Origin: Clostridia bacterium | GTDB lineage: Bacteria; Bacillota; Clostridia; Oscillospirales; CAG-272 | Reading direction: 5' to 3' | DNA length: 64,000 nt | NCBI GenBank assembly: GCA_017455975.1 | Contig: JAFTLK010000013.1 | Span: forward strand, 13,362 to 77,361 | Shown here: positions 6,632 through 58,587 of the stretch, piece by piece | How positions within the stretch are numbered: position 1 is the stretch's first letter | Layout of the letters: every line of letters starts with the position of its first letter | Notes under the pieces: model-generated | The model's database searches: none | The model's input: the letters and a program-made list of their open reading frames with translations, nothing else | What the model was told of the DNA's origin: nothing | Made by a program: the position numbers and the translations under genes

Positions 6632-6669
6632 CAGATAGGGACAGATAGGGTGACGGTTCGCACTCGAAC

Positions 6670-6902
6670 CAAGCCTTCCCTGGTGAGGGAAGGTGGATTT
6701 TGATAAAAATGCGGAAGCGTTTTTATCAAAAGACGGATGAGTCGTCTGCACGCCGGCAAGGCAGCACAACGAAAGATTACAAGATGCAAACATTGTATGT
6801 ATGGCAATTTTGGTATCATCTCATGAAAAAGCAACAGGAGAACGACTCATCCGTCACACGCCCTATGGGCGCGCGACACCTTCCCTCACCAGGGAAGGCT
6901 TG
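6670..6902. repeat. nested inverted-repeat element (REP/BIME- or MITE-like)
   Basis: Perfect 26-bp arms: CAAGCCTTCCCTGGTGAGGGAAGGTG (6670-6695) and its reverse complement (6877-6902). Perfect inner 14-bp arms at 6732-6745 / 6842-6855. A 12-bp AT hairpin at 6698-6709 / 6720-6731. Confidence 0.8.
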
Positions 6903-6977
6903 GATGCTGGTACGCCCGTCGTTGTCTCTCTGCTTTTATGATTATCGTATTCACAACTGATAAAAGGAAAAACAACC

Positions 6978-7985
6978 ATGAAATACATCGGACTGGATAT
7001 CGGCGGCACCAAATGTGCCGTCTGTATCGGTGAGGTCACGGACGGTGTCCTGACGCTCATCGACAAGGAAAAATTTGCAACAGGCAAGGGACGCGATCCC
7101 TATGAGGTCATGGGTGAGCTGTATGCCCATTCCGTATCCCTGCTTGAAAAACACGGCATGACCTTTTCGGACATTGCCGGCATCGGTATTTCCTGCGGAG
7201 GACCGCTCGATGCCAACGCCGGCGTGATTCTGTCCCCGCCCAATCTGCCCGGCTGGGATCATATTGAGATTGTCAAATATTTTGAAGAAAAGACAGGCGT
7301 GAAGACGTATCTGCAGAACGACGCCAACGCCTGTGCCGTTGCCGAGTGGAAATTCGGCGCGGGACGCGACCCCGAAACGGGCAAGTGCGTCGACAATATG
7401 GTCTTCTGCACATTTGGAACGGGACTTGGTGCCGGACTGATTCTCGGCGGACGGCTGTACTCCGGCACCTCCGACATGGCGGGCGAGGTCGGACACATCC
7501 GTCTGACCCCGGCAGATGCCGACTATCCGCAGCCCATCGGCTACGGCAAACGCGGCTCGGCGGAGGGCTATTGCTCCGGCGGCGGCATTGCACAGCTCGG
7601 CTGCATTGCTGTGGAGCGGACACTGGCAAACGGCGAGGAACCGCGTCTTTGGCTGGAGGCGGAGAAAAACTACGACAACATCACGGCAAAGCTGATTGCC
7701 GATCTGGCGGATGCGGGTGACGAACTGTGTCTTGGTATCTATCAGACCTGTGCAAACAAGCTCGGTCAGACGCTGTCCATTCTCATTGATTTATTGAATC
7801 CGCAGCTGATCGTCCTCGGCGGTATCTTCATGCGTTCCGCGCATCTGCTCCGTGAGACGATGGAGGACGTGATTGCACACGAAACGCTCGGTTTTGCAAG
7901 TGATGTCTGTAAGGTGGTTCCGGCAGGGCTGGGAGAGACCATCGGTGACTATGCCGCGCTGTCCGTTGCAACCGGAAATTTCTAA
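6978..7985 (+). CDS. ROK-family sugar kinase
   Basis: 335 aa. N-terminal MKYIGLDIGGTKCAV ATP-binding motif, ROK-like GAGLILGGRLYSGTSDMAGEVGH block. Confidence 0.75.
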   Translation: MKYIGLDIGGTKCAVCIGEVTDGVLTLIDKEKFATGKGRDPYEVMGELYAHSVSLLEKHGMTFSDIAGIGISCGGPLDANAGVILSPPNLPGWDHIEIVKYFEEKTGVKTYLQNDANACAVAEWKFGAGRDPETGKCVDNMVFCTFGTGLGAGLILGGRLYSGTSDMAGEVGHIRLTPADADYPQPIGYGKRGSAEGYCSGGGIAQLGCIAVERTLANGEEPRLWLEAEKNYDNITAKLIADLADAGDELCLGIYQTCANKLGQTLSILIDLLNPQLIVLGGIFMRSAHLLRETMEDVIAHETLGFASDVCKVVPAGLGETIGDYAALSVATGNF

Positions 7986-20007: not shown

Positions 20008-21495
20008 ATGAAGCGAGTCAATCAATCCCGCATGGCGGTAATCCTGCTTCTGTCTGCACTTCTGGCATCCTGCGGCGGAGAAGGAGCCGCCGATACCACC
20101 GAAGCGGTAAGTACGGCGGACAGTCTGCAGACAACCGAGGCTGTCACGGAGGCAGGCCCGCAGTCCACAGTGGAGGCCAAGGACTTCGGAGGGGAAAATG
20201 TGCATTTCCTGCTGTACTCCAATTCCGATTACCAGAATTCCGCGATGGATGTGGCCGCCGAGGAAACCAACGGCGAGGCACTCAATGACGCGGTTTTCCA
20301 GAGAAACGACAGACTGATTGAGAAATTCAACATCGACATCACATGGGAAGACCCCGGAAACGCAACCATTGCCGCAAACAAACTGAAGCAGGCGGTGCTG
20401 GGCGGCGATGACAGCTATGATATTTCCTTTATCTCCACCTATGAGAGCACCCTTGCCGGCATTGACGGACGGATGCTCGATATGAATACGGTTCCGCATA
20501 TCACGCTGGAAAATCCGTGGTGGAACGGCCGTATGGCAAAGGATACCGCGATCATGGATGTCAACTACTTCTTTATCGGCGATATGAATCTGGACACATG
20601 GACGCAGAGCTATGTCACCTATTACAGCAAGACCGTCGCCGCAAATCACGACATCGACGGACTTTATGACATCGTCCGGAACGGCGAGTGGACGTTTGAC
20701 AAGCTGGACGAGCTGACCCGCACGGTATACAGAGACGTAAACGGCAACGGCGCCTATGACGAAAATGATCTGTACGGACTGACCGCCTGCTCGGTCTGCA
20801 TCGACTGCTTCTGGGCGGCAAGCGGCATCAATATGGTGGTCAAGGATGCAGAGGGCGTTCCGTCCTATTCCTTTGACAGTCAGTTCTACGATATGTATGA
20901 CAGAATCGTCAACCTGCTGCAGGCGCCCCAAATGCTGTACACCGACCGGCCGCAGTATACCTCCAAGCGCGATACATATGACCGCGGTGCCTTCATGGAA
21001 GACCGTGCGCTGTTCTTTATCGAAGGTTTATGTGTCGCCGGCAATCTGCTGCGCAGCATGGAGACGGATTACGGTATCCTGCCGCTTCCGAAGTATGACG
21101 CGGCGCAGGAGAACTACCGTACCTATTCGCATACCACACACAACTCCACGGTTTCCCTTCCGGTCACATCGGCTGGGAAGGTCGATATGCTCGGCATGAT
21201 TCTGGAGGACATGGCGTTTTATTCCATGGAGCTGGTCCGTCCCGCCTACTATGAAAACATGTTGAATGCAAAGCTGGCACGCGATGAGGAAAGCATTGAG
21301 ATGCTGGAAATCATCACCACCAATGTCTCCTATGACCTGATGTTTGTGCTCAATCATAACTTTGCGTTCCAGCAGCTGCGCGGTGCGCTGAACCGGAGCG
21401 ACAACGCCGCATCCTTTATTGAAAAACAGGAAAAGCTGCTGAATTCATCCATTGAAAAGCAGATAACCTCCATCCGGGAAAACCTAGCACAGTAA
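20008..21495 (+). CDS. ABC-transporter extracellular solute-binding lipoprotein (sugar type), orphan
   Basis: Lipobox LLSALLASCGG. 495 aa. Paralog of ORF 41659-43140 (shared blocks such as PWWN). No permease or ATPase gene nearby. Confidence 0.7.
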   Translation: MKRVNQSRMAVILLLSALLASCGGEGAADTTEAVSTADSLQTTEAVTEAGPQSTVEAKDFGGENVHFLLYSNSDYQNSAMDVAAEETNGEALNDAVFQRNDRLIEKFNIDITWEDPGNATIAANKLKQAVLGGDDSYDISFISTYESTLAGIDGRMLDMNTVPHITLENPWWNGRMAKDTAIMDVNYFFIGDMNLDTWTQSYVTYYSKTVAANHDIDGLYDIVRNGEWTFDKLDELTRTVYRDVNGNGAYDENDLYGLTACSVCIDCFWAASGINMVVKDAEGVPSYSFDSQFYDMYDRIVNLLQAPQMLYTDRPQYTSKRDTYDRGAFMEDRALFFIEGLCVAGNLLRSMETDYGILPLPKYDAAQENYRTYSHTTHNSTVSLPVTSAGKVDMLGMILEDMAFYSMELVRPAYYENMLNAKLARDEESIEMLEIITTNVSYDLMFVLNHNFAFQQLRGALNRSDNAASFIEKQEKLLNSSIEKQITSIRENLAQ

Positions 21496-24031: not shown

Positions 24032-24070
24032 AAAACCGACCGTATCATCATAGGTACGATCGGTTTTTTG
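24032..24070. terminator. bidirectional rho-independent terminator
   Basis: Stem AAAACCGACCGTA / TACGATCGGTTTT (one mismatch), flanked by A and T tracts, between convergent genes. Confidence 0.65.
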
Positions 24071-24108: not shown

Positions 24109-24375
24109 TCAGAGTTCTGCAAGTCCGCTGTCGACAAGGCGGCCGATGAACTCGGCGTAATCCTGACGGAGGGTTGCTTCGCCCACCTCATATTCCGCAA
24201 GCAGCTCCGCGATGACGGTGTCCTCGTCCTTTCCCTGGGAAAGACGCTTCCAGATTTCGGCTCCGACCTCGGTCACGGCAAAAATGCCGGTCATTTTCAG
24301 TGCCGCCTCACCTGTCGGGATCAGAATATATTCGCCTGCGATTTCGCGTACAATGATATTTTTTTCCAGTTTCAT
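24109..24375 (-). CDS. PqqD-family protein (RiPP recognition element-like)
   Basis: 88 aa starting at the ATG at 24375, with a GAGGAA RBS. MKLEKNIIVREIAGEYILIP...EIWKRLSQGKDEDTVIAELLAEYEV matches the PqqD/RRE pattern. Confidence 0.7.
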   Translation of the reverse strand: MKLEKNIIVREIAGEYILIPTGEAALKMTGIFAVTEVGAEIWKRLSQGKDEDTVIAELLAEYEVGEATLRQDYAEFIGRLVDSGLAEL

Positions 24376-24453
24376 GACAATTTCCTCAGCTTCTTTCAGT
24401 CTCGGAAGCCTTCCTTTCATCTGGTGTTGGGGGATCGGTTTTGGGATCGGTGT

Positions 24454-25644
24454 TCAGCGCAGACCGAGTGTGTGCAGCATATCGGCCATGGCCGACGTTT
24501 CATCGGCGGTCAGCGCCTGTGTCGCCGCGAGCTCATTTGCGATGCGCCCGGCCGTGCGGCGGGAGAGCAGACGGAACCAGCGGTGGATCTGGCAGAATGG
24601 AAGAAGCAGCCTGTGCTTCTGCAGAATGGGATATTCGTATTTCAGACGGCTGTAGGGGGCAAAAAGCCGGGAGAGCAGATACCGGAGCTTTCCTCCTGTC
24701 TGCAGACGGCCGAGTGCCATGCGGTTTTTCACGCTGCCGTAAATACCGCCGGTCAGGATGTATTCCTGCATCATCCGGTACAGCGGAGCAGATTCCGGTG
24801 TGGGCTGTTCATCCGAAAACCATATGCCGCACAGCGTGCGCATGTGCGATTCAAACACGGCAATGCCGGCTTCCTCCAGCATCGGATCAAGGATCGCGCG
24901 GTCAAGCGGGGCGGCACGGTGCAGATAGACCCACAGATCCATAACGGTGCGGATGCCGCATCCGCCGTATTCGTAATGCTTGACCATATGAGCGATGTGA
25001 TAGAAATAGGCAAATTCGGGTGTCAGCGTCCGCTGACAGCTGTTCTCGCTGTCGGAAACTGTGTATTCCCAGACGCGGGAGAGCATCGGCTGCATCTGCG
25101 GATATGATTCCTCGTCGATCAGTGTGAAGTGCAGCTCAAGCAAAACGCCGGAGGGGGCGATGAACTGCACGTCATGGGAGCCTGCGCGCAGCCGCCGGTA
25201 TCCGGCATTACCGGTCAGAGCGTCCGTGATACGCGCAAGATCATCCTGCCGGATGAGAATGTCGATGTCGCAGCTGGTGCGCATTTCCGGATACGGATAA
25301 TACGGGCGCAGTGCCGATCCCTTGAGCGGGATATACGGCACACCGAGCGAGGTCAGCACGGTGCACAGCTGTCCCAGCTCTGCATGGAGCTGCTCGTACC
25401 GGGTGATCGACGCAATGCGTGCACGGCGGTAAATGGGATACCATGCGCTGTCGCGCGCAAGTCCCTGCTTCATCAGTGCCGCACCGACGATGTGCGTCAG
25501 ATCGTGCTTTTGTGCTGCGGTGTACAGCCGGGTCAGCAGATCGTTATCGGTGAGATCTATGGGATTCTGCGGGGGATCGGTTTCCGGTGCGCAGAGCTCG
25601 GACCGGATCAGCGAAAGCAGTTGTTGTTCCATATCCGACAGCAC
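24454..25644 (-). CDS. uncharacterised nucleotidyltransferase family protein (PF14907-like)
   Basis: 396 aa. The layout (LKGSALRPYYPYPEMRTSCDIDILI, HLELHFTL) is typical of the nucleotidyltransferases found with PqqD and HPrK-like genes. Confidence 0.6.
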   Translation of the reverse strand: MLSDMEQQLLSLIRSELCAPETDPPQNPIDLTDNDLLTRLYTAAQKHDLTHIVGAALMKQGLARDSAWYPIYRRARIASITRYEQLHAELGQLCTVLTSLGVPYIPLKGSALRPYYPYPEMRTSCDIDILIRQDDLARITDALTGNAGYRRLRAGSHDVQFIAPSGVLLELHFTLIDEESYPQMQPMLSRVWEYTVSDSENSCQRTLTPEFAYFYHIAHMVKHYEYGGCGIRTVMDLWVYLHRAAPLDRAILDPMLEEAGIAVFESHMRTLCGIWFSDEQPTPESAPLYRMMQEYILTGGIYGSVKNRMALGRLQTGGKLRYLLSRLFAPYSRLKYEYPILQKHRLLLPFCQIHRWFRLLSRRTAGRIANELAATQALTADETSAMADMLHTLGLR

Positions 25645-25674
25645 ACCTCCTGTATCGTGAATCTGTAAATGATG

Positions 25675-26127
25675 TTATCTGTGTCGGAGCACATGCACCA
25701 GCCGCCAGAACAGCGGGCGGACCGGGCGTGTCGGATACCAGAGCAGGTCCCGCAGTCTGATGAGGGGGCTGTCGGTGCTCCGCGTCCGACCGTTTTTCGT
25801 GACGGAAACAACCTCTGCCAGAACCTGTTCCGGCGCGACGGTTTCGCACCAGTCCTGTGCATCTCCGTTCATCAGAAACCGTCCGTCAGGCAATATCCTG
25901 CGCAGACGGTGCAGAATGAAGTCACCGTTTCTGCGTCGGAAGAACAGAATGCGGCCGCGGCGGTAGCGATCTTTCTTCTGCAGATGTACGGTGTCGCGTC
26001 CGTGGCGGAGAAAGGGCATCATGCTGGCACCGGTCACAACAAGCGGGATTGCGGCGCCGCTTTCCAGAATCGCAATCAGAGCATCCGCGTCGCGGACGGC
26101 ATCAATGGTGCGGATGTTGTATTCCAT
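25675..26127 (-). CDS. S24/S26-family (signal-peptidase/LexA-like) serine peptidase
   Basis: 150 aa. Nucleophile motif VTGASMMPFL. The downstream FILHRLRRI...NGD places a His where bacterial type I signal peptidases have the catalytic Lys (SipW/ER-type pattern). Confidence 0.55.
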   Translation of the reverse strand: MEYNIRTIDAVRDADALIAILESGAAIPLVVTGASMMPFLRHGRDTVHLQKKDRYRRGRILFFRRRNGDFILHRLRRILPDGRFLMNGDAQDWCETVAPEQVLAEVVSVTKNGRTRSTDSPLIRLRDLLWYPTRPVRPLFWRLVHVLRHR

Positions 26128-26206: not shown

Positions 26207-27763
26207 TTAAAGACTGTCGCTGTTGTCTGTATCTGCGGTGGCGGCGTCCGTTTTGCCGGAACGTCTGCGGCGCAGGCTGCCTTTTTCGTGCTTTTCTCCG
26301 TAGCTGCCGTAGCTGTAGCCGTAACCGTATCCATATCCGTAGCCATACCCGTAACCGTAACGGCCGTATCCGTAGCCGTACCCCTCGCGGTGCGGCGCGG
26401 AGCCGTTGATGATACAGCCGAGCAGGGTGGTGCCGGCTGAGGTCAGCGCATCAATGGAGGCCTGAATACGGGAAATGCGGATGGTATCCTCGCGGATGAC
26501 AAGCACCGTCGAATCGACGACCGATGCGATGGCGACCGGGTCTGAGGTCAGACCGAGCGGCGAGGTGTCCACGATGATGTAATCGTATTCGCGGCGGAGC
26601 GTTTCAAAAAAGTTGATCAGATGCTCGTACTTGAGAATGTTCCAGATGGCATTTTTGACGTGTGTATTGAAGCTCAGTACGGAAAGTGCGGTTGTATTGC
26701 TGATGTTGTACTTTGTGATGCGCAGCATTTTGGAGCGTGCGTCCTCGGCAGCAGCCTCCGGGATGCCGAGGCGTGCGCAGACATTCGGGTTCCTCAGATC
26801 GGCGTCGACCAGAATGACGTTTTTGTTCATCATGGCAAGCGACATGGCCAGGTTGACAGCAACCGTGGTCTTGCCCTCACCCGGTGCGGTGCTGGTGACC
26901 ATGACGACCTTATTCTGACCGAGAGCGCTGACCAGAGAGTTTCTGCCGGCACGCAGTGCTTCTTTGTATCCCTCACCGACCATTGGATTGGTGAGCAGGA
27001 TCTCGCGATTGATTTCTGTATTGTATTTTTTGAAAGAAACCTGAGGCAGCACGCCGATGCAGTGCTGATTCAGCTTTTCGCGCACATCGCGGCGGGATCG
27101 GACGGTCTTTCGCAGTACCGCATACAGAACGATCAGTGCGGCACCTGCCGCAAAGCCGGCAAGCGCACCCTTGAGCACCTGTGACCGATAGGCAAGTGCA
27201 TTGGAGGGGGCGGTTGGAATCTCGGGCTTATTGAGAATATACAGATTTGTATTGCCGATGACGTATTCCGCAACGGACGGGTAGTTTTCAATCAGAGACA
27301 GCAGTACATCGTATGTCTGCTGCGGGTCACGTCCCGTGGCGGTGACGGTAAACATGTTGGTACCGGAAACCGAGGTCGAGGACAGCGAGCAGGGGAAATA
27401 GGACAGACCGAGATCATTGCAGATGATGTCCTGCAGAATGTTGCTGCGGACGATGCTCGGGAAGGTCGACGCAAGCTGGGATGCCGTCGCACGGTTATAG
27501 GAGAATGAGTACGAGGTGATGCCCATACTGCCGTAGCGCATATCCTGCGTCTGGACGGTAAAGGTGACCGACGACTGGTAGACCGGAGAGAAGCGGACAT
27601 AACTGCGGTAGAACATGACCGCAGCGCCGACGACCGCGAGAATCAGGCAGAGCCACCAGAATTTTCGGAAGGCACGGAGAATTTCCGGAAGCCGGATCTC
27701 CAGATACCCCTCCTGCTCGTCATGGGAGCTGCTTGTTTCATTGTTGGTTTTGTGTTCATTCAT
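26207..27763 (-). CDS. fused Wzz-type chain-length-determinant / BY tyrosine kinase
   Basis: 518 aa. N-terminal TM plus Wzz region. Walker A is VTSTAPGEGKTTVAVNLA, with a DADLRNP block. C-terminal Tyr cluster GYGYGYGRYGYGYGYGYGYGYGYSYGSYG. Confidence 0.8.
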   Translation of the reverse strand: MNEHKTNNETSSSHDEQEGYLEIRLPEILRAFRKFWWLCLILAVVGAAVMFYRSYVRFSPVYQSSVTFTVQTQDMRYGSMGITSYSFSYNRATASQLASTFPSIVRSNILQDIICNDLGLSYFPCSLSSTSVSGTNMFTVTATGRDPQQTYDVLLSLIENYPSVAEYVIGNTNLYILNKPEIPTAPSNALAYRSQVLKGALAGFAAGAALIVLYAVLRKTVRSRRDVREKLNQHCIGVLPQVSFKKYNTEINREILLTNPMVGEGYKEALRAGRNSLVSALGQNKVVMVTSTAPGEGKTTVAVNLAMSLAMMNKNVILVDADLRNPNVCARLGIPEAAAEDARSKMLRITKYNISNTTALSVLSFNTHVKNAIWNILKYEHLINFFETLRREYDYIIVDTSPLGLTSDPVAIASVVDSTVLVIREDTIRISRIQASIDALTSAGTTLLGCIINGSAPHREGYGYGYGRYGYGYGYGYGYGYGYSYGSYGEKHEKGSLRRRRSGKTDAATADTDNSDSL

Positions 27764-27840: not shown

Positions 27841-29304
27841 TTATTTCTGCTCGTTTTCGCCTTTTGAGGAGTAGCGGCTGTAGTAGCTGTAATTCTTCCC
27901 GTAGCTGCCGTAGTAGCCGGTCTCATCCAGACCGAACTGACCGAGGAAAGAGAATTCCTTATGTACCGCGTTGAGAATACAGCCGGCAAAGGTATTGGTC
28001 TTTTCACGCAGCGAGAGGATGCTGTCGTTGATGTCGGCCGCATAAACGCAGTCGGTGCGGACAACAACAAACGACTTGTCAGCAAAGCGCATGAACGTCG
28101 TGACATCGGCGGCAACCGAAAGCGGCGGGGTATCGATGAGAATGTAATCAAATCCGGCATCATCACGGAGCCGACGGAATATCTCCGATACACGGTCCTC
28201 GTAGATCCAGTTGACGTAATTGCTGTGGTTCTTGGAGTTGACAGCCAGCGCGACGTTGGTGTTTTTGTACGTTCTGAAACGGTATTCGTTCAAGGGGGTC
28301 TCGCCGATCAGCAGAGAGGCGAAATCCGGGCTGCCGTCGCGTTCCAGCTCGAAAATTTTATGAATGGCCGGCTTTTTGAAGTCCATATCCAGAAGTGCCA
28401 CACGGTTCCCGCGTTCGGCCAGTGCCAGTGCGATGTTGGCGATCGTTGTGGATTTGCCTTCGTTTTCCGCGATGCTGGTGACAAGGAAGACCTTTGCGTT
28501 TTCCGTACGGTGCATATATTCAAAACGGTTGGCGATCTTATGGAAGTTCTCCGCGAACTGGTGGCTGGTGCTCGGGTTGGTGGTCAGAAGCGAGACCTTC
28601 TCGCCCGACAGTATCTTTTTCAGCGTCTTTCCTGCGCGTTCATGCTGCACCGTTCCGACCAGCTTTGCGTCGATCTTTGTTTTGAACGATGCCTCGTCCT
28701 TGATGGTATCACGCATGACCGAGAGATAGACGATCAGCGCAAGCACAAGTGCGGCACAGCCGAAGACGGCCAGCGTCTTGTTGCGTTCGGAAATGGTATT
28801 GGACGGAGAGGAGGGGAGATTCGGTGAGCGCATGATCTCGATGACGGAGTCGGAGAAGACGACCTCGGAGATCTGCGGATAGACCTCAAGGATGGCGCAC
28901 AGCTCCCGGTAAGAGGTCTCCGGCGAGGAGGTCGTGACGCTGACGGTGAAGATGTTGGTGTTGTCCAGCACCGAGGAGGAAACGCTGCCTTCAAACCGGT
29001 CTGCGCCGAGATGGGAGGCTGCATACTGCTTCATCGTCGACTGCTTGAAGACCTCGGTGAAGATTTCCGCCATTTCGGATGAGGAGGACAGGTTGGTATA
29101 GGAATATGTGGCGGAATTGCGGATGTTTACAAGCAGCGTTGCCGTACTGGTATACATCGGCGTATGCATGCTGTGGTTCCAGATATTGACCGTCATCAGG
29201 CCGATCAGCGCAGCCAGCAGGATGACCCACAGGTTCAGAACAATATCCCGGATCAGGCTGTACGGCTCAATGTGCGGCGCGTTTTTGTTTTCGTAATCGT
29301 TCAT
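27841..29304 (-). CDS. fused Wzz-type chain-length-determinant / BY tyrosine kinase (second copy)
   Basis: 487 aa. TM plus Wzz region. Walker A is VTSIAENEGKSTTIANIA, with a DMDFKKP block. Tyr-rich tail GYYGSYGKNYSYYSRYSS. Confidence 0.8.
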   Translation of the reverse strand: MNDYENKNAPHIEPYSLIRDIVLNLWVILLAALIGLMTVNIWNHSMHTPMYTSTATLLVNIRNSATYSYTNLSSSSEMAEIFTEVFKQSTMKQYAASHLGADRFEGSVSSSVLDNTNIFTVSVTTSSPETSYRELCAILEVYPQISEVVFSDSVIEIMRSPNLPSSPSNTISERNKTLAVFGCAALVLALIVYLSVMRDTIKDEASFKTKIDAKLVGTVQHERAGKTLKKILSGEKVSLLTTNPSTSHQFAENFHKIANRFEYMHRTENAKVFLVTSIAENEGKSTTIANIALALAERGNRVALLDMDFKKPAIHKIFELERDGSPDFASLLIGETPLNEYRFRTYKNTNVALAVNSKNHSNYVNWIYEDRVSEIFRRLRDDAGFDYILIDTPPLSVAADVTTFMRFADKSFVVVRTDCVYAADINDSILSLREKTNTFAGCILNAVHKEFSFLGQFGLDETGYYGSYGKNYSYYSRYSSKGENEQK

Positions 29305-29344: not shown

Positions 29345-30160
29345 TTATTCCTCAACAACGACCGTCAGGATCTCGTGTCCGGTGCGGTCAAACTGGTCAG
29401 TCACGCGGTAATGTACCTCATACATGCCCGGGGCCGCAGTATCGAGATTGGTGTCGATCTGTACATCGGCCAGAACATTCTGCCCCTGAGCATTCCGCGC
29501 GGAGACGATGTTTGCGGCGGTATCATAGGTATCGCCTGCATGCAGGTAAACCAGGTATTCGTTCAGCTCGATCTTCGGCGCGGACAGGCTCAGATCCTCA
29601 ACGTAAACAGGCAGCTGCAGCGCGATGCGGTCTCCCTTGCTGTTTGCGACCTTGGCCTGGATATAGAAAACACCGGCGACATTGGAGGAGTATTCGTTTG
29701 CCGTGATGATGACCTTGCTGCTGATATCGCCGTCGATCAGATCCTGTGCTCCGAGCAGGTTGCGGATGTTGATGTTCTGCGAAATACCGAAGATCAGAGA
29801 ATCGGACAGTGTGAACTTCGGCGGCTCATAATTGGAATATATAATTTTTCGCTGTGCCGAGGAGGCATGGTTATCGTTGTCGCAGACGGCATACTTGATG
29901 ACCGAAACACCGGGTTCGCTGAAGCGGGAGATGGATTCGATGATGATCTTATGTGTCAGATCGCCGTCCTTTTCGTCATACGCGGTGACACCCTGCAGCA
30001 GCTCCTCCTCGGTTGCGTCGAGGCTGACGGTGAGCATTTCGCCGTCGATGGTGATCTTCGGGACGGTACGGTCGGCGCTCATCTGCTGGATCCGGAACAG
30101 GATGAAAACGATCAGCACCAGAACAAATAAAACGGAAACGCATAAGCGGAGAATCTTCAT
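29345..30160 (-). CDS. membrane-anchored protein with Ig-like (DUF5011/HYR-like) repeats, function unknown
   Basis: N-terminal TM helix ILRLCVSVLFVLVLIVFILF followed by two or three repeats of about 80 aa ending in patterns like GxYxVxYxVxD. Confidence 0.45.
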   Translation of the reverse strand: MKILRLCVSVLFVLVLIVFILFRIQQMSADRTVPKITIDGEMLTVSLDATEEELLQGVTAYDEKDGDLTHKIIIESISRFSEPGVSVIKYAVCDNDNHASSAQRKIIYSNYEPPKFTLSDSLIFGISQNINIRNLLGAQDLIDGDISSKVIITANEYSSNVAGVFYIQAKVANSKGDRIALQLPVYVEDLSLSAPKIELNEYLVYLHAGDTYDTAANIVSARNAQGQNVLADVQIDTNLDTAAPGMYEVHYRVTDQFDRTGHEILTVVVEE

Positions 30161-30269
30161 GAATGTGCGACTCCTGTCACAAAAATAATATCGGTATACA
30201 CAAAGCGGATTCCGGTGTCGTTTGTCCCGAAAAGGAATTCTGCGCCGGAGAAATGTCCGCTACTTAATT

Positions 30270-30298
30270 ATTATATCACAATCGTGTGACTTTGTCAA
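30270..30298 (-). promoter_or_regulatory. sigma-70-type promoter of the 30160->24109 operon
   Basis: On the minus strand: TTGACA (30298-30293), 17 nt, TATAAT (30275-30270). Exact consensus. Confidence 0.65.
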
Positions 30299-30422
30299 CC
30301 GAATATCGGCGGTATTTGACGAATGCGGGGATGAAATATCCGGTAATTTCAGGGTAATTTCAGGGCGGTTTCGAAGCCGTCCGGGCGGTATGATTTTGTC
30401 CGTTCTTATTGCGGATTTGTGC

Positions 30423-37454: not shown

Positions 37455-39611
37455 TCATTTTCCAAACCACTCGTCAAACACATCGCGTACGCAAAGCCCT
37501 GCAGAAGTACCCGACGCACCGTTTTCGATGATGGATACGGCAAGCAGCTGCGGGTTGTTCAGCGGCGCAAAGCCTGCAAACACGGCATTGGGGCTTCCGC
37601 CGTCACCGACCTCGGCAGTACCGGTTTTGGCACCGACCGAAACACCGTAGCCGCGGAAGACGCGCGTTGCAGAACCGTTCTCGGCGACCTCGCGCATCGC
37701 GTCAATCAGTGTCGCATGGGTTTCCTCATCGAGCGCGATCTTATCAAGCACCGTTCCGACCAGAGAAAAGCGGGGCTTCGGATTGTCATGCTCGGCAATT
37801 CCCTTGACATAATGCGCCTGATAGCGTGTTCCGCCGTTGACAAGCGTGGACAGATAGACCGCCAGCTGCATCGGGGTATAGGCGTTGTAGCCCTGCCCGA
37901 TGGATGTCTGCAGTGTATCGGCACCGACCCACGGCAATCCTCTGGAATCGGTATATGCCTTGGAGGACAGAATCCCCGCCGCTTCGGGAAGCTCAACACC
38001 GGTCTTCTGACCGAGACCGAGCGAGGACATGAATGAGGACAGCTTGGAGATGCCGAGCTGCCGTCCGACATCAAAGAAGAAGTAGTTGCACGAATCGCGC
38101 AGGGCTTCCGTGACATTGATCGGACCGTGCGACAGTCCTGTTCTTGTAAACAGCCAGCAGCGCGGCTGATAGTCGTCATAATAGGTATAAACACCCTTGG
38201 TGTCGATCCGCGTATCGGGTTCGATGATGCCGTCTTCCATGGCCGCCGCCGCGACACCGACCTTGAATACAGAGCCGGGCGCATATGTTCCCATCAGCGC
38301 ACGGTTATACAGCGGAAGCAGCGGATCGGCAGACAGCGCGGTATAATCGTATGCCGTCAAGTCAAACGTCGGATAGGAGGCAGACGCCAGAATTGAGCCG
38401 TTGTCGGGGTCCATGACGACCAGCGCCCCGGCGTTGGCATCCTCGCCGTTCTGTTCTTCGCCGGAGGACAGCGCCGATTCCACGATATAGGCAATGTTGT
38501 CCGCCAGCGCCTGCTCTGCTTTGATCTGCAGGTTGATATCGACGGTCAGATAGACATCCTTTCCGGGGATGGCTTCCTTGAGTACGGTCTGCCGCAGGAT
38601 GCTGCCCTGTGCGTCCTCTTCGATCAGCATGGTGCCGTCTGTGCCGCGCAGCGCTTCCTCCATCGCGCCCTCAATGCCGTCGATGCCGACCACCGCATCC
38701 AGAGGATAACCCAGTGCGGTATAATAATCGACTTTGGAGGCCTGAATGGGACCTGTACGGCCGAGGATGTGCGATGCATATCCGGGGTAACAGTATTCGC
38801 GGTCGGTCTGCACGCGGAAGGTTACGCCGCGCAGGTTCTGCTCCCTGATCGGTGTGATCAGCGAAAGATCTGTGTCATCGGCCAGACGGTAGGGGGTGGC
38901 TGCATCGAAGGTCAAGACCTCCAGATCGTATCGGATGCATGCGATGCGATATGCCATATGGCTGTCGTAAAGCAGCGTTTTCGACGTTTCTGTTTCCGGG
39001 GCGCCGATGACCTCGGTTTCCGCCTCTTCGTACAGATGATAGCGGCTGTACATGGCATCGAGCACATCACCTGCCGCAAGCGATTCCGTGCCGTCCAGAC
39101 CGATCGTTGTCAGATATTCCTCAAAACGTGCTCTTGCCGCCGAGGATACCGTTTCCGGCTTCAGAAAATACAGATACCGATCGTCGGCATATCCCCATGT
39201 GATCGGCAGGGAAGAGGTGCGGATTGCGTCTCCGCTCTCATCGAGCAGGGTCAGCAGTGTGTAAAGCAGTGCATTGGCTGCTGCATCATCGGTCGGAAAG
39301 GACGCGGCATCCAGCTCCAGTTGATGGCGCATGACATCCTGCACCAGCGGCACACCGTTGGTGTCGAGAATGGAGCCGCGGCGCGCCTTGATGCTGACCG
39401 TACGGCGGGTGACGGCGACGCGCTCACCGCCGATGGTCACGGTGGTTCCCTCGGGCGGCGTCAGCTGCATCGAGACGAGCCGTACCGTATAAAACCCGAT
39501 GACCGACAGAAACAGCATTGCCAGAATGAGATAACGGAGGACACCCTCTTTGCGTGATTTGGTGCGGGCGGGAGACGTTTTTTGCTTATCTTTTGCCGGT
39601 GTCTTCGCCAT
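37455..39611 (-). CDS. penicillin-binding protein 2 (class B transpeptidase)
   Basis: AGGAGG RBS 8 nt before the ATG at 39611 (MAKTPAKDKQ...). TM anchor. Motifs SVFK (SxxK), SCN (SxN) and KTGT. Confidence 0.85.
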   Translation of the reverse strand: MAKTPAKDKQKTSPARTKSRKEGVLRYLILAMLFLSVIGFYTVRLVSMQLTPPEGTTVTIGGERVAVTRRTVSIKARRGSILDTNGVPLVQDVMRHQLELDAASFPTDDAAANALLYTLLTLLDESGDAIRTSSLPITWGYADDRYLYFLKPETVSSAARARFEEYLTTIGLDGTESLAAGDVLDAMYSRYHLYEEAETEVIGAPETETSKTLLYDSHMAYRIACIRYDLEVLTFDAATPYRLADDTDLSLITPIREQNLRGVTFRVQTDREYCYPGYASHILGRTGPIQASKVDYYTALGYPLDAVVGIDGIEGAMEEALRGTDGTMLIEEDAQGSILRQTVLKEAIPGKDVYLTVDINLQIKAEQALADNIAYIVESALSSGEEQNGEDANAGALVVMDPDNGSILASASYPTFDLTAYDYTALSADPLLPLYNRALMGTYAPGSVFKVGVAAAAMEDGIIEPDTRIDTKGVYTYYDDYQPRCWLFTRTGLSHGPINVTEALRDSCNYFFFDVGRQLGISKLSSFMSSLGLGQKTGVELPEAAGILSSKAYTDSRGLPWVGADTLQTSIGQGYNAYTPMQLAVYLSTLVNGGTRYQAHYVKGIAEHDNPKPRFSLVGTVLDKIALDEETHATLIDAMREVAENGSATRVFRGYGVSVGAKTGTAEVGDGGSPNAVFAGFAPLNNPQLLAVSIIENGASGTSAGLCVRDVFDEWFGK

Positions 39612-39636
39612 GGGCATGTCCTCCTTTCGATGATAT

Positions 39637-41499
39637 TTACAGATCTTCTTCCCGTGCGATGACCGCATTCATGACATCGTTGGCATAAAAATCGGACAGG
39701 ATCCAGAAGCTTCCGTCGGGGTCGATGACCGTATCATCGGTATACGTCACTGCGAGCTCATTGATGGCATCGATCATCGCATCGGGCAGAAGCATGGCCG
39801 TCTGACACAGGGTCTGGAATTCGGCCTGCTCGCGGCAGATGATATGCTTGAGCGCGGTATAATAAAGGTCATTGAGATGACGCACGAAGTTTTCGTAGGG
39901 ATCGTCGCAGGTGATGTCCTCCTGCTCCTCTGCGGCGGCTGCGGGCGGTGCGGAGGGAGGTACGTCTTCTGTTGGAGACGGCGTATCCGGCACGGATACC
40001 TCCGCCTGCGGGTGCGTGTCGGCGGCGGAGACCTCCTCTGGGACAAGCAGCTCGGTGTTTGCCCATGATGTCACCTCAAGGGCAAGTGCCGCCTCGGGTG
40101 ACAGGTCGGTTGACAGCGGTTCATACAGCGCGGCATACGCCGATTCTTCCTGTCTGCGTGCGATCTCGTCCTTTTGTGCCTTGGTCTGTACAGGCTTTCT
40201 CGGTGCCTTCTGCGGCGGCGGCAGCTCACGCGCAAAGTAATCCTTTACATAGGTTTTGAGTACTTCCGGAACACCGGATGCATTGAGCCGTGCCTTGATA
40301 CCGTAATGCGCACGGATGCAGTTTTCTGCGAGCTTGAACAGATCCGACAGAATGAATTTCAGCTGGTACGAGCGCGACAGCGACAGATACCGCACATCGA
40401 TGCGGCGTTTGCAGGAATACGTACAGAGTGCACCGGAGAAGGCGTTGCGCGATTGCTGCACCTCTGAAAAGCCGAGCAGGGAAACGAAATCCGGGTCGGT
40501 TTTCCAAGCGTGATGCAGTGCGCCGAGGACAGAAGCATACATGTGTGTTTCAAACACGGTGCGGTTATCCGGCGTCAGATACTTGGATTGCCGCCAGTTG
40601 TGTGTTGACAGCACGTCACACAGCTGCGGGGTGATCGGACATTCGTCGGCGGCGTTGAAATGGATATAGAATTCCCGGAAGGTCAGAATGGTGACCAGCG
40701 TCGGCAAAATGGACGAGAGCTGCTGCAGCGGTGCGGGCAGTGCATGGATCAGGCAGTAGTCACAGACCCATTCCCCAAGGTATCTGTCCAGCCGCGGGAA
40801 CTGCTCACGGTACGCAAGCCACAGATCGCACAGGATCGCAAGTCCCTGCACCGGCTTGATCTTTTCGGGCAGGTTGAGGATCTCGTAGATATATAAGAAA
40901 ATATAACTGTAGTCGGTGGACAGATACACACCGTGGCGCACATTGTCGCGCCAATAGAGATACCACCGCAGCTGATCCTGCGACATCTGGCTGTACTGCG
41001 GCATGTAGGCAAAGAAATTGACAAACGGGACCTCCGCCGAGGTTCGGTTGAAATACCGCTCGGCATCCGCCGTGAAGCGCTCATAATACTGATACCGCTG
41101 GGGCCACCGGAAAACCGAAACCTGTTTTATCATGCTGTTCTCCGGTGTATAGCTGCAGACCGGCTGTGCCATCTGCGGGGAAACGTCCCCCGGTGTATTG
41201 CCGTGGGACGGCATCGGTGATGTTCTGCTGCGGTCGGGGTTGCGGGCGGCACCATTGCGGTACTGCGCGGCGCGCTGCATCCGCGATGTGATATTCGGCA
41301 TCGGCGGGATGTGCAGCTCCCGTGCATCGTCCTGCTCCTCCTCACCAAAGGCAATTTCCACAGCCTCGGTATCGCGCGGACCGTCGGTCGTGGTCGGCGC
41401 CTGTCGAAGTACGGATTGCGGGAGCATGCTGTCAAGATCCCAGAAATCGTCACGCATTTCCCGCTGTTCTGTTTTTTTGTTGTCCGTCTTATCGCTCAT
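39637..41499 (-). CDS. TerB-N / TerB-C domain-containing protein
   Basis: 620 aa. QLRWYLYWRDNVRHGVYLSTDYSYIFLYIYEILN matches the TerB N-terminal domain pattern. Acidic Pro-rich linker and TerB-C-like C-terminus. Confidence 0.55.
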   Translation of the reverse strand: MSDKTDNKKTEQREMRDDFWDLDSMLPQSVLRQAPTTTDGPRDTEAVEIAFGEEEQDDARELHIPPMPNITSRMQRAAQYRNGAARNPDRSRTSPMPSHGNTPGDVSPQMAQPVCSYTPENSMIKQVSVFRWPQRYQYYERFTADAERYFNRTSAEVPFVNFFAYMPQYSQMSQDQLRWYLYWRDNVRHGVYLSTDYSYIFLYIYEILNLPEKIKPVQGLAILCDLWLAYREQFPRLDRYLGEWVCDYCLIHALPAPLQQLSSILPTLVTILTFREFYIHFNAADECPITPQLCDVLSTHNWRQSKYLTPDNRTVFETHMYASVLGALHHAWKTDPDFVSLLGFSEVQQSRNAFSGALCTYSCKRRIDVRYLSLSRSYQLKFILSDLFKLAENCIRAHYGIKARLNASGVPEVLKTYVKDYFARELPPPQKAPRKPVQTKAQKDEIARRQEESAYAALYEPLSTDLSPEAALALEVTSWANTELLVPEEVSAADTHPQAEVSVPDTPSPTEDVPPSAPPAAAAEEQEDITCDDPYENFVRHLNDLYYTALKHIICREQAEFQTLCQTAMLLPDAMIDAINELAVTYTDDTVIDPDGSFWILSDFYANDVMNAVIAREEDL

Positions 41500-49936: not shown

Positions 49937-50079
49937 GGTGGTTCCCTCCTGAATGGACTTTGATATCTTCATTATACCCGATTGGCGGGTGTATGTCAAG
50001 TGGCAGGGGAGAAAAAGAGGTGGCGCAAACACTTGCAGCACCTCTGGGGGGATATAAGCTTGTGAAAATCACACCGGGA

Positions 50080-55792: not shown

Positions 55793-56956
55793 TTATATCT
55801 CTTCGCCGTGCGGCGAGGGGGTTCTGTTTTCGGGGGGCGGCAGCGTGCACGCGATCCGGTGCAGTGCCTGTGTCATGCGGCACATGTAGGTTGGAATGCC
55901 CGCACAGCTGCCTGTCTCCGCATACGCGATCGCCGCGCAGGGGTGGCAGACATTGAGGTTCGGGCAGCTGTCACACACGCCGGAGAGGGTCAGCTTCGCC
56001 GCCGTTTCCGTCAGCGCATGCCAGCTGTCGGCAAATGACAGCTTCCGCAGATCGACCTTCGGCTCCGGCATCATGCCGCAGGGGGTCATATAACCGTCCC
56101 ATGTGATCCAGTACGAGGCCTTGCCCGCCCGGCAGTGGATCTTACCGTCCACCGGGTCGATACAGCTCTCATCCAGACCGCGCGGCTCGGCGTATCCGTC
56201 GCGGATTGCCTGCATATGCTTCAGATATGCGTCGCGGCCGTGGTTCTTTTCCCAGAACCGGGCAGTGTAGTGCGCGCTCTCCTCGGGGGTGAAGCGTTCG
56301 TTTTGTCCGGTCATCGTCGGATCACGCCGGATCGGCGGGAACATGTAAGCCGCGACCGACAGCTGTGCACCGCGCGCCTTGGCATACTCGACGATGAAAT
56401 CAAGGTCGGAGGCGTTTTCCGGTGTCAGCGAGCAGTTGATCTTGACGCGGATGCCGGCTTCCGTCAGCATGCGGATGGCGCGGTCAACGCGGGAAAATAC
56501 ACCGTCTGCACCGCACAGGCGGCGGTAGGTTGCGTCGTTTGCGCCGTACAGCGTGATGTTGATCTTCTGCGGCGGCTTTGCAAGGAACCGTGCGGCGGCG
56601 GTCTCGTCGATCAGCGAGCCGTTTGTGTTGACGGAGATGAGGAATCCCATGTCGATCAGCGTATCGTACAGGGTGAAAAACTGCGGCCAGAGCAGCGGTT
56701 CTCCTCCGGTCAGAAGCAGGTACAGCGTGCCTGCGTCCCGTGCCTGTTCTGCTAACGACAGCCAATCGTCGAGGGTCATCGGCCTGCGGGGCGAGGCATC
56801 GACCTCGGCCTGTGTCTTCCGGACATAGCACATCCGGCACGCAAAGTTGCAGACGGGGGATAATTCAAAGGTTCCGCTCAGCGGGACACGCATCGATATC
56901 GCCTTGTAGGCGAGGAAATCGGACAGCGTCCGCGGCGGGGATTGGGGTTTGTTCAT
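55793..56956 (-). CDS. radical SAM / SPASM-domain peptide-modifying enzyme
   Basis: ATG at 56956, overlapping the upstream stop as ATGA. The rSAM cluster is SPVCNFACRMCY. SPASM cysteines: CRAGKASYWITWDGYMTPC then CDSCPNLNVCHPC...C. No N-terminal RRE domain. The track ORF (543 aa) is over-extended. Confidence 0.8.
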   Translation of the reverse strand: MNKPQSPPRTLSDFLAYKAISMRVPLSGTFELSPVCNFACRMCYVRKTQAEVDASPRRPMTLDDWLSLAEQARDAGTLYLLLTGGEPLLWPQFFTLYDTLIDMGFLISVNTNGSLIDETAAARFLAKPPQKINITLYGANDATYRRLCGADGVFSRVDRAIRMLTEAGIRVKINCSLTPENASDLDFIVEYAKARGAQLSVAAYMFPPIRRDPTMTGQNERFTPEESAHYTARFWEKNHGRDAYLKHMQAIRDGYAEPRGLDESCIDPVDGKIHCRAGKASYWITWDGYMTPCGMMPEPKVDLRKLSFADSWHALTETAAKLTLSGVCDSCPNLNVCHPCAAIAYAETGSCAGIPTYMCRMTQALHRIACTLPPPENRTPSPHGEEI

Positions 56957-57825
56957 ATGCGGCCCTCCTTTGCAAGGGCGTCTTCCAGAGATGTCACCGC
57001 ACGCTCGTCCGGTGTACACGACAGCGCATATACCGGGATGTCCGCGGCCAGGCCGGCCGTCAGCGCGCTTGCCTGCGCGACAAAATCGGGATCCCAGCTG
57101 TGGACGGTCATGCCCGGCCAGAGACCGCGAAAGGCCTGTGCTGGAGAAAGCCGCCGGACGGTGCAGGTATCGGCCTGCGCCAGAAGCACAATGGCCGTGA
57201 TGGGGCAGCTTGCGTTGACGTGGTATTTCGATGATCCGGCATACGGGGAGCCCCATGCCAGCCATCTGCCGTCGTCGCAGGACAGGATCGGGCGATCGCC
57301 GTTGATCTGTTCCGCGCCGCGCGTGCTGCACCACAGCTCTGCCTGCGTGGACTTGCCGATGCCGGACACGCCGGAAAACAGAAGTCCGCCGAGGTGTGTC
57401 CGCACACAGGATGCATGCAGGCACAGCCGGTTCCTTTGCAGGAGAATCGCCTCAAAGCCCAGATGATAAAAGCTGTTGGACAGCTCCGAGACGCATCGGA
57501 CGTATTCAGGCCGATAATCGACGCAGATCTTGCCGTGTGCGGCATCAAAGGTCGAGACGGCGTAATGCACCGGGTCTTCCGGAATCTCAAAGAAAAACTT
57601 CTGCGGATTGCCCGCAGCGTCCCGCCCGATTCTGTATGCGCGGTCTGTAAACAGCGGAGAATGAGGGAGCGGCGGCAGGGAGTCGGTCGCAGAGAAAACC
57701 GCCTCGATGTCGGGCTCCGTTTCTTCTGTCAGAAACGGGAGAAAGGCTTTGCTTTCCTTGAGCGGATGGTCTGTCGCAAGACAGATGGAAATGTCGGAGA
57801 CTGTTATGTATGTGCGGGTGGGCAT
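56953..57825 (-). CDS. HPr-kinase-related P-loop protein (HprK-like, RiPP/SCM-cassette type)
   Basis: 290 aa. Walker A is LLFSGVSGIGKSTQAELW in the C-terminal half, as in the HPrK/P catalytic domain. Its start overlaps the stop of the small peptide gene (TGATG). Confidence 0.65.
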   Translation of the reverse strand: MPTRTYITVSDISICLATDHPLKESKAFLPFLTEETEPDIEAVFSATDSLPPLPHSPLFTDRAYRIGRDAAGNPQKFFFEIPEDPVHYAVSTFDAAHGKICVDYRPEYVRCVSELSNSFYHLGFEAILLQRNRLCLHASCVRTHLGGLLFSGVSGIGKSTQAELWCSTRGAEQINGDRPILSCDDGRWLAWGSPYAGSSKYHVNASCPITAIVLLAQADTCTVRRLSPAQAFRGLWPGMTVHSWDPDFVAQASALTAGLAADIPVYALSCTPDERAVTSLEDALAKEGRI

Positions 57826-58058
57826 CAGGAGTTGAAGATGCTATGACCGCCGGTGCTACCGTGATAACAATAATCTTCTATATAAGTATCGCACATATCT
57901 GTAAGTACGATTAGCCCCGGAAAGTCTGAATCCTCGCCACCAATAAAGGTATTGCAATCTTCTGACTTGGTATGATTAAGATCGTATTGGCAGATTGCCA
58001 CCTGCTGCGTCAGCTCAAAGTTCTCGTAAAAGAGCTCGGGCTTGACATACTTTTTCAT
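57825..58058 (-). CDS. 77-aa candidate RiPP precursor peptide
   Basis: MKKYVKPELFYENFELTQQVAICQYDLNHTKSEDCNTFIGGEDSDFPGLIVLTDMCDTYIEDYCYHGSTGGHSIFNS. GAGAGGT RBS. First gene of the operon, behind a consensus promoter. 4 Cys, strongly acidic, internal GG, C-terminal Ser. Confidence 0.6.
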   Translation of the reverse strand: MKKYVKPELFYENFELTQQVAICQYDLNHTKSEDCNTFIGGEDSDFPGLIVLTDMCDTYIEDYCYHGSTGGHSIFNS

Positions 58059-58244: not shown

Positions 58245-58273
58245 ATTATAACACTATGTAAAGAGTTTGTCAA
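58245..58273 (-). promoter_or_regulatory. sigma-70-type promoter of the peptide-HprK-rSAM operon
   Basis: On the minus strand: TTGACA (58273-58268), 17 nt, TATAAT (58250-58245). Exact consensus. The ~185-nt leader contains a CTTCCaaatattttcGGAAG hairpin just before the RBS. Confidence 0.65.
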
Positions 58274-58530
58274 CAATATAAAAGAATTTTTTCGCCGTTT
58301 CCGGCAAATTATTATACAGCGCTTATAATAGATTGTCCCGAAGACGAGCGGTCTCCTCATATACCTGCTTTGTGTTAATAAACTCCTATAAATCATATTA
58401 TATCATTTTCGGAAAGCTTTGTCAATGTTATCTCGTTGATCATCATGGCTTTGCTTGTCGAAAGCATCAAAACCCGCGTGGAAAATCGATTTTTCACGCA
58501 AAAATTCCGGATAAGATTCACGTTTTCAGA

Positions 58531-58577
58531 ACAAAAACAACCCCGTAACAGACGAAATACCATCGTCCGTTACGGGG
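58531..58577 (-). terminator. rho-independent terminator of the sigma/anti-sigma/phosphatase operon
   Basis: Stem CCCCGTAACGGACG / CGTCTGTTACGGGG (one mismatch) followed on the minus strand by TTGTTTTTG. Confidence 0.75.
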
Positions 58578-58587
58578 CTTGATTTGT

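Follow-up and report, generated by a model that had tools for sequence, protein, structure and literature searches.

Linear polyphosphorylated peptides (LPPs) of Bacilli are made by gene clusters that lie inside capsule loci. These clusters encode a precursor (LppA), an HprK-like kinase (LppK), a discrete recognition element (RRE) for peptides made by ribosomes and modified after translation (RiPPs; LppB), a SipW-type peptidase (LppS), an MsbA-like exporter (LppD) and an NTP transferase (LppN) (Popov et al., Nat Commun 2026, PMC13381572). The LPP leader carries the motif YxxPxVLxHQxIxFETxxS and is cut after FET, and LppK polyphosphorylates Ser3 of the core (PMC13381572). Removal of the leader by LppS requires LppB, and the S29A, H68A and D93A variants of LppS are inactive (PMC13381572). 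In both LPP and lasso systems the choice between Tyr and Trp is the main determinant of leader specificity, and the final product and biological role of LPPs are unsettled according to the same study (PMC13381572). That paper mentions neither radical SAM enzymes nor Clostridia, and its supplement has one Oscillospiraceae peptidase. In the pseudomycoidin system, the C-terminal Ser is phosphorylated by the kinase PsmK, and PsmN is needed for the addition of a hexose to the phosphate (PMC6993621).

We analyzed a stretch of 64,000 nucleotides from a Clostridia bacterium of the Oscillospirales (GenBank assembly GCA_017455975.1, contig JAFTLK010000013.1, positions 13,362 to 77,361; hereafter the window). 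At issue is a trio of genes that encode a PqqD-like RRE, a nucleotidyltransferase-fold enzyme of family PF14907 (hereafter the transferase) and a peptidase. An initial annotation of the window had proposed that the trio and a precursor cassette ~31 kb away form one split pathway. Synteny and gene fusions in relatives support a place of the trio in a peptide pathway with a kinase and a radical SAM enzyme (rSAM); the pairing with the cassette at 57-58 kb is plausible but unproven, as the PqqD protein is of another lineage. The normal partners of the trio are an HprK-like kinase, an rSAM and a precursor with a YxxP leader. In gut Oscillospirales this pathway is built into a capsule regulatory operon (CpsB, an Ig-like protein and two bacterial tyrosine kinases, or BY-kinases) and has an extra rSAM/SPASM maturase, and we regard it as an rSAM-containing sister variant of LPP-type pathways. 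We lean, with modest confidence, towards the view that the trio supplies the RRE, the leader peptidase and the tailoring enzyme for an LPP-like RiPP pathway in a capsule operon and acts in trans on a 77-amino-acid (aa) peptide encoded in the distant cassette. The pairing of the two loci, each chemical step and the link to capsule function are points that we infer from sequence and by analogy with the described systems.

The operon comprises six co-directional genes on the minus strand, for an Ig-like protein, two fusions of a Wzz domain to a BY-kinase, the peptidase, the transferase and PqqD, with gaps of 40, 77, 79, 30 and 78 nucleotides in that order (Table 1). The gene calls, family matches and gaps of 30-79 nucleotides bear out the initial annotation, which had placed the trio directly behind the two BY-kinase genes. 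It had also stated that no terminator occurs before 24032-24070. The sole convincing terminator is indeed found there, between the end of the operon and a convergent acyltransferase gene.

To place the trio among its relatives, we used the peptidase alignment to search a genome collection with one representative for each species. Of 114 confirmed hits, the best 80 were kept as loci (numbered L###; protein cluster representatives are numbered P###). Each locus covers 10 kb on either side of the hit and was annotated with profiles built in this analysis. Partners within 10 kb were counted in the 48 loci whose sequence extends 8 kb or more to either side of the peptidase gene (well-flanked loci). 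BY-kinases were found in 40 of the 48, the HprK-like kinase in 39, PqqD in 39, the rSAM in 38, the transferase in 37 and an MsbA-like ABC exporter in 33. BY-kinases, kinase/rSAM, transferase and PqqD occur together in 32 of the 48, so that the co-occurrence of the trio with a kinase/rSAM cassette holds in relatives. A location at the end of a BY-kinase operon is the rule for these genes and nothing odd, given the BY-kinases in 40 loci, and what is unusual in the window is solely the absence of kinase, rSAM, precursor and exporter beside the trio. The window thus has a minority, split layout among related loci.

The commonest layout, exemplified by L052, reads (LCP), CpsB, Ig-like, BY-kinase, BY-kinase, ABC exporter, PqqD, rSAM, a precursor of ~90 aa, kinase, peptidase, transferase and priming sugar transferase. 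The order kinase, peptidase, transferase was seen in 37 of the 80 loci, the order of the window (BY-kinase, peptidase, transferase) in eight and the order BY-kinase, peptidase, LCP in seven. In 38 cases the gene immediately upstream of the rSAM gene encodes PqqD, and in L052 the stop and start codons of the two overlap. Neighborhoods of transferase homologues contain CpsB, Ig-like, BY-kinase, BY-kinase, a small protein and the transferase, followed by PqqD or LCP. Those of kinase homologues are contiguous; for instance, L012 reads transferase, peptidase, PqqD, a membrane protein that we call X, peptide, kinase and rSAM. A kinase-centered scan of metagenomes returned the same gene families in other orders, such as kinase, X, rSAM, transferase, peptidase, ABC exporter, CpsB, Ig-like, BY-kinase, BY-kinase on human-gut contigs. 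In L175 a single run holds LCP, ABC exporter, peptidase, CpsB, Ig-like, BY-kinase, BY-kinase, PqqD, X, peptide, kinase, rSAM and a GH20 gene. Every close homologue of the window cassette for which the upstream flank was read has a PqqD of its own upstream of the peptide (L010/L011, L012, L174, L175 and L176). The block of peptidase, transferase and PqqD is intact, at 56-78% identity and with no cassette within 10 kb, in L001, L002, L177 and L178, and its conservation there argues for a function with a distant partner.

Gene fusions provide independent evidence that kinase, peptidase, transferase and PqqD share one pathway. A profile search of 1.84 billion cluster representatives with the peptidase returned 3880 relatives at E<=1e-10, of which 166 reached E<=1e-30. 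Three proteins are transferase::peptidase fusions (P0396, P0417 and P0428), and P0352 is a kinase::peptidase fusion, in which residues 6-286 match the kinase profile with 99.96% probability and the peptidase domain spans 299-444. Kinase::PqqD fusions occur in loci of the L037 type.

From its sequence and its AlphaFold model, the peptidase is predicted to be a cytosolic SipW-type Ser/His enzyme of the S24/S26 fold. It matched Peptidase_S24 with E 3.7e-4 and TIGR02228 (archaeal-type signal peptidase I) with E 1.8e-4, and neither match reaches its curated cut-off. The motifs TGxS35MxP, LH73R, GD89AQ and E95 are invariant in 24-26 homologues. The model (pLDDT 88) is closest to the PDB structures of UmuD', LexA, SpsB and SipA. 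His73 occupies the general-base slot held by Lys in bacterial type I signal peptidases; the invariant LHR motif and the alignment with His68 of LppS uphold the earlier remark that a His replaces the catalytic Lys, as in SipW. The N-terminus has no hydrophobic segment in the sequence, and the model shows just a short helix at 14-22. We therefore rejected a bacterial type I signal peptidase (S26A), which would have a Ser/Lys dyad and an N-terminal membrane anchor. Profile alignment with hhalign matched the peptidase to LppS with 98% probability (E 1.7e-13) and aligned Ser35 with Ser29 and His73 with His68. The counterpart of Asp93 of LppS is ambiguous, being either D92 or E95. By BLASTP the two proteins share 28% identity over 102 residues, and this pairwise E of 1e-9 falls short of the edges (E below 1e-23) that define the LppS similarity cluster, to which the peptidase was therefore not assigned.

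In the transferase, the signature of the nucleotidyltransferase fold (K108-G109, D126-x-D128, E170 and H172) is invariant among homologues. A sequence search of the PDB returned no match. The AlphaFold model (pLDDT 91) has MenT1, ANT(2'')-Ia and LnuA as its best PDB folds. PsmN of pseudomycoidin was modelled on the same ANT(2'')-Ia (PMC6993621).

For the PqqD protein, the start at 24375 is preferred, with a GAGGA Shine-Dalgarno sequence 7 nucleotides upstream and homologues of 88-89 aa. Its family profile matches LppB with 95.5% probability, and Asp72, at least 90% conserved in the family, aligns with Asp70 of LppB, which binds the leader Tyr. The protein scored below the cut-offs of the lasso, GeoRSP and WgkC chaperone models and had no other NCBIfam matches.

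In the distal cassette the stop and start codons overlap along the peptide, kinase and rSAM genes. The 77-aa peptide is the sole open reading frame with a YxxP leader in all six frames of the 64 kb; HMM and six-frame motif searches for a second precursor in the window returned 57825-58058 alone. PqqD, transferase, peptidase, kinase, rSAM and precursor are each present in one copy in the window. Upstream of the cassette we found promoters and no PqqD. The rSAM has no RRE of its own, as initially noted: its domain begins at residue ~30, and its alignment with SkfB begins only at SkfB residue 104, past the N-terminal region of SkfB. The kinase has a single NCBIfam match, to TIGR04355 (HprK_rel_B), where it scored 25 bits and the cut-off is 200, and its homologues bear precomputed matches to Pfam PF27840 (ScmC), some of them weak or faint. 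Compared with cassettes of the same subtype, identity is 37-47% for the peptide, 54-62% for the kinase and 62-69% for the rSAM.

The precursors all start with MKKxY(V/I)xP. Across 20 diverse precursors of the window type, M1, K2, Y4, K6, P7, A21, C23, C56, C64 and the C-terminal Ser are invariant, E12, F14 and C35 are nearly so, and the remaining core is hypervariable. The leaders of the two subtypes (MKKYVKPEL.YE.FELT and MKK.Y.KPEI.FE.FKMT) are nearly alike, and the window-type leader resembles the LPP leaders MKKLTYKAPEVLNHKPITFET and ..LYARPMVLSQQPVRFET. The window peptide contains YVKPELFYENFELT, in which both YxxPx[L] and F-E-x-T are present; the spacing is two residues shorter than in the LPP motif, the HQ/I positions differ, and the cleavage site is a prediction.

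Taken together, the genes resemble the LPP set in a discrete PqqD-type RRE, a predicted Ser-His leader peptidase in place of a lasso B2 protease, a kinase of the HprK-like kind, a PF14907 transferase, embedding in a capsule locus, a YxxP motif for predicted RRE binding, an F-E-(L)-T motif at the predicted cleavage site and, in relatives of the window only, an MsbA-like exporter. They differ from it in several respects. The host is one of the Clostridia (Oscillospirales) rather than the Bacilli, and an rSAM/SPASM maturase is constant, with its gene translationally coupled to that of the kinase. The core is rich in Cys, ends in an invariant Ser, and has neither an AQS phospho-site nor a Ser at +3. 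The kinase is of the ScmC/PF27840 type, and the genes keep to one position, behind two genes for Wzz/BY-kinase fusions. In the window itself the HprK-like kinase lies outside the operon, 31 kb off, so that the set is split over two loci and has no exporter. The window genes thus fall outside the definition of LPPs as linear peptides with Ser3 polyphosphorylation and no other core-modifying enzyme.

Among other described systems, paeninodin and pseudomycoidin share with the window an HprK-like kinase, a PF14907-type transferase and a discrete PqqD RRE, and window-type precursors likewise end in Ser; the predicted Ser/His leader peptidase and the rSAM set the window apart. The functions initially ascribed to the pseudomycoidin kinase and transferase agree with the published work (PMC6993621). 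A lasso cluster was rejected, since Pfam scans of the neighbors and most large open reading frames of the window revealed no macrolactam cyclase or B2 protease. The SynChlorMet (SCM) system also pairs an HprK-like P-loop protein with an rSAM/SPASM enzyme, but membership was rejected: the scores were 74 bits for ScmF and 57 bits for ScmE against cut-offs of 400, and the window kinase had no TIGR04249 match. The initial annotation had further invoked the HPr-rel-A system, which is represented by TIGR04352 for kinase A and, we presume, TIGR04353 for the PqqD partner. The window kinase and PqqD reach none of the cut-offs of its models, and this assignment was abandoned; the kinase is a distant relative of the ScmC/PF27840 type. 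The host operon is of the cpsABCD type of capsule module known from Firmicutes (LCP, the PHP tyrosine phosphatase CpsB, the Wzz-like CpsC and the BY-kinase CpsD). Where relatives have the canonical layout, the peptide cassette is flanked by the kinase genes of this module on one side and by its priming sugar transferase on the other. The host operon departs from cpsABCD in having Wzz-kinase fusions in two tandem copies with an Ig-like surface protein ahead, and the window has no CpsB or LCP. A full-text literature search for a link between radical SAM, PqqD, capsule and tyrosine kinase yielded nothing useful.

If the trio serves the distant cassette, PqqD would bind the Y-x-K-P-E-L motif of the precursor leader and hand the precursor to the RRE-less rSAM, which may form crosslinks at the four conserved Cys, and to the HprK-like kinase for phosphorylation of a Ser. 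The best candidate for the phospho-site is the invariant C-terminal Ser, by analogy with paeninodin and pseudomycoidin. The PF14907 enzyme would then decorate the phosphate, possibly with a sugar, and the Ser/His peptidase, docked on the complex of RRE and leader, would cut after ...FELT. In this genome the genes for RRE, peptidase and transferase lie behind those for the BY-kinases. Those for precursor, kinase and rSAM form a strongly promoted unit of their own with the GH20 gene, 31 kb away.

Several results weigh against this scheme. Homologues of CpsB, LCP and the X membrane protein are absent from the 64-kb window, so that the set is incomplete, and a tblastn search of the window with the L052 exporter found no MsbA-like exporter. 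BY-kinases are present with no kinase plus rSAM, transferase or PqqD in reach in eight of the 80 loci (three of the 48 well-flanked ones). In the sole reconstitution of an LPP pathway, LppN had no detectable activity (PMC13381572). Most directly, the window PqqD is merely 31-38% identical to the PqqD proteins beside cassettes of the window subtype. By these sequence comparisons it is of another lineage and therefore did not move away from the 57-58 kb cassette as its displaced native RRE. The cassette itself is without a native RRE, and the one RRE in view comes from that other lineage. The peptidase and the transferase likewise track the lineage of the host and its BY-kinases.

This difference in lineage leads to the strongest alternative, namely that the real partner of the trio is a second cassette, of the 2b subtype (kinase of ~250 aa), outside the 64-kb window, and that the cassette at 55.8-58.1 kb was acquired independently and uses another RRE or none. 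The window PqqD is far closer to the PqqD proteins that flank 2b-subtype cassettes (75%, 64% and 56% identity in L020, L018 and L017). Two cassettes around one capsule module are possible in relatives, as on the contig that yielded L007, L010 and L015. Separate acquisition is hinted at by the absence of the cassette and the GH20 gene from the syntenic site by the GH42-like gene in L177, and by a stretch of 38.5% GC within the GH20 gene. Nevertheless, the window has no second cassette, and the ~3 kb recovered past its left end has nothing relevant. Moreover, cross-service between subtypes is plausible because their leaders are nearly identical; in LPP and lasso systems specificity depends mainly on the choice between Tyr and Trp. 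In the L015 genome a single peptidase-transferase pair accompanies both types of precursor. We consider the second-cassette explanation possible but unlikely, and supply in trans by the trio to the 57-58 kb cassette is, as judged from the sequences, plausible.

It is also conceivable that the peptidase and the transferase, aided by PqqD, have the capsule machinery or its polysaccharide as their substrate instead of a small peptide, for instance by processing a BY-kinase, Ig-like or LCP component or by adding a phospho-sugar to the polymer. In 16 of the 80 loci the peptidase gene follows the second BY-kinase gene, and in seven of these it stands directly before LCP with no transferase between them. 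Homologues of the transferase (38-42% identity) occur in capsule sugar-synthesis loci (L003-L006 and L009) with no PqqD called among their neighbors, distant peptidases of Intestinibacter follow VanZ and LtaS-like sulfatase-domain genes, and the fold search with the transferase weakly touches FKRP, a ribitol-phosphate transferase. Yet one of the operon genes encodes a discrete RRE that retains the Asp for binding of the leader Tyr, and the kinase::peptidase and kinase::PqqD fusions link the peptidase to the peptide pathway. In addition, RRE-dependent removal of a leader is proven for the homologue LppS (PMC13381572), and most well-flanked loci have a kinase (39 of 48) and an rSAM (38 of 48) within 10 kb. 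A role confined to the capsule therefore appears improbable.

That the trio is a functionless remnant, left after loss or relocation of the other cassette genes, is very improbable: exporter, CpsB and LCP are indeed not in the window and the region is rearranged relative to L177, with the penicillin-binding protein and TerB genes on the other side and strand, but the reading frames are intact, every invariant catalytic residue is kept, a perfect promoter precedes the genes, the gaps between them are short, and peptidase, transferase and PqqD are kept together at the protein identities given above in L001, L002, L177 and L178.

The window and its relatives amount to a large uncurated sister group of LPP pathways in gut Oscillospirales, with a kinase near the peptidase in at least 39 of the 48 well-flanked loci. 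This group is marked by the added radical SAM maturase, four fixed Cys plus a C-terminal Ser, and a constant spot in the capsule regulatory operon. It offers a second, chemically richer way into the product identity and the capsule-gene linkage of LPP-type peptides. The natural split of the window is a ready test of whether one set of RRE, peptidase and transferase can serve a distant, non-cognate cassette.

A bolder idea, which we rate as doubtful, is that the peptide pathway works as a single machine with the capsule regulatory module, in which the peptide, crosslinked by the rSAM and phosphorylated on Ser, is a primer, anchor or signal for the assembly of capsule or glycan and not a free antimicrobial. 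If so, the phospho-Ser of the peptide would receive a sugar-phosphate or glycan of the capsule pathway through the PF14907 enzyme, and the BY-kinases, LCP and the giant GH20 or sialidase-type enzymes would act on or answer to the glycopeptide. The fixed site between the BY-kinase and priming sugar transferase genes in dozens of species would then reflect this coupling.

Table 1. Coordinates of the host operon, the distal cassette and their flanking signals in the window.
Feature	Coordinates	Strand	Evidence and remarks
Operon promoter	30270..30298	-	TTGACA-17-TATAAT, sigma-70, 12/12 matches, extended -10 TG; upstream of Ig-like gene
Ig-like surface protein, membrane-anchored (operon gene 1)	29345..30160	-	PF16403 E 2.6e-18; synteny
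Wzz/BY-kinase fusion 1 (chain-length-determinant domain + tyrosine autokinase)	27841..29304	-	Pfam ParA/AAA_31/Wzz; TIGR01007 E 2.2e-27
Wzz/BY-kinase fusion 2, (GY)n tyrosine-rich C-terminal tail	26207..27763	-	Pfam and NCBIfam scans
SipW/archaeal-type S26-like Ser/His peptidase, 150 aa	25675..26127	-	LppS counterpart; predicted leader peptidase
PF14907 nucleotidyltransferase-fold enzyme	24454..25644	-	PF14907 E 1.4e-42; LppN/PsmN counterpart
Discrete PqqD-like RRE, 88 aa	24109..24375	-	PF05402 E 7.5e-15; LppB counterpart
Intrinsic terminator, bidirectional (A-tract, 9-bp stem, T-tract)	about 24032..24070		closes operon
Strong terminator 5' of cassette promoters	58579..58539		
Two promoters of precursor cassette	58425..58397 and 58273..58245	-	both sigma-70 12/12 with TG
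Precursor peptide, 77 aa	57825..58058	-	leader MKKYVKPELFYENFELT; four conserved Cys; C-terminal Ser
HprK-like P-loop kinase, ScmC (PF27840) type	56953..57825	-	invariant His137, Walker A SGxGKST, NGD
Radical SAM/SPASM maturase	55793..56956	-	without N-terminal RRE
Giant secreted GH20 glycosidase, 1893 aa	50080..55761	-	31 nucleotides downstream of rSAM gene

The Ig-like gene ahead of the two BY-kinase genes is kept in relatives. The C-terminal tyrosine cluster of the second BY-kinase fusion (26207-27763) is an unusually regular GY repeat, GYGYGYGRYGYGYGYGYGYGYGYSYGSYG. Just 5' of the -35 hexamer of the operon promoter, at ~30340-30365 on the minus strand, the tandem direct repeat CCTGAAATTAC occurs twice and may be the binding site of a regulator. 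The regions downstream of both the operon and the cassette promoters share a motif, CTTTTCGGGACAAAC / GTCTTCGGGACAATC, at 30220-30234 and 58331-58345 on the minus strand. It has these two matches in the window and no others, and at least two matches were found in three of 100 shuffles; the motif may be a common regulatory element or a product of chance.

Genes for a penicillin-binding protein, TerB and a GH42-like protein (window 37455-41499 and 47903-50041) also flank the operon in L177 and L178, in another order and orientation. The window region is rearranged relative to these two loci, and CpsB is missing from it. Genes for capsule sugar synthesis are likewise absent from the window.

In every relative with enough sequence, a cassette of the window subtype is immediately followed by a giant secreted glycosidase. 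It is either a GH20 enzyme of 1842-1958 aa (window, L011, L174 and L175) or a BNR_2/sialidase-like protein of 2418-3053 aa (L012 and L176). The low-GC stretch of the GH20 gene in the window (52001-54000, 38.5% against about 55% elsewhere) may be a foreign or repetitive block of domains.

Protein X often lies between PqqD and the precursor (L010 8922-9734, L012 8700-9737, L175 8930-9730, and 44 of the 80 kinase-centered loci). Its N-terminal membrane helix is joined by a low-complexity linker to a C-terminal domain of ~190 aa, and it has no Pfam or NCBIfam match.

In L007, from a genome with a window-type cassette upstream of its capsule module, a second precursor of the other subtype (MKKTYAKPEIFFENFKMT...LFAS) is encoded about 9 kb downstream, at 20770-21009. 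A single peptidase-transferase pair is in view there. One pair for two types of precursor suggests that the tailoring enzymes are shared.

Seven loci (L037, L038, L039, L041, L048, L051 and L056) have a second small cassette between the BY-kinases and the main cassette, at about 4900-7500. It consists of another rSAM, a peptide of 54-64 aa (MKKAYATPVAEKIEFRY...CSHTVAVPDSGF) and an HprK-like::PqqD fusion of ~377 aa.

Distant peptidases (37-39% identity) occur with no profiled partner gene in L077, L082, L084, L085, L087 and L091, from Intestinibacter and related bacteria. In L087, the one locus among these that was analyzed further, the peptidase gene comes after a VanZ gene and a gene for a 765-aa LtaS-like protein with a sulfatase domain. 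Kinase-transferase pairs with no rSAM, PqqD or peptidase detected nearby were seen in L150, L151, L153-L158, L160 and L163, mostly on human gut metagenome contigs, and may represent a reduced or different system.

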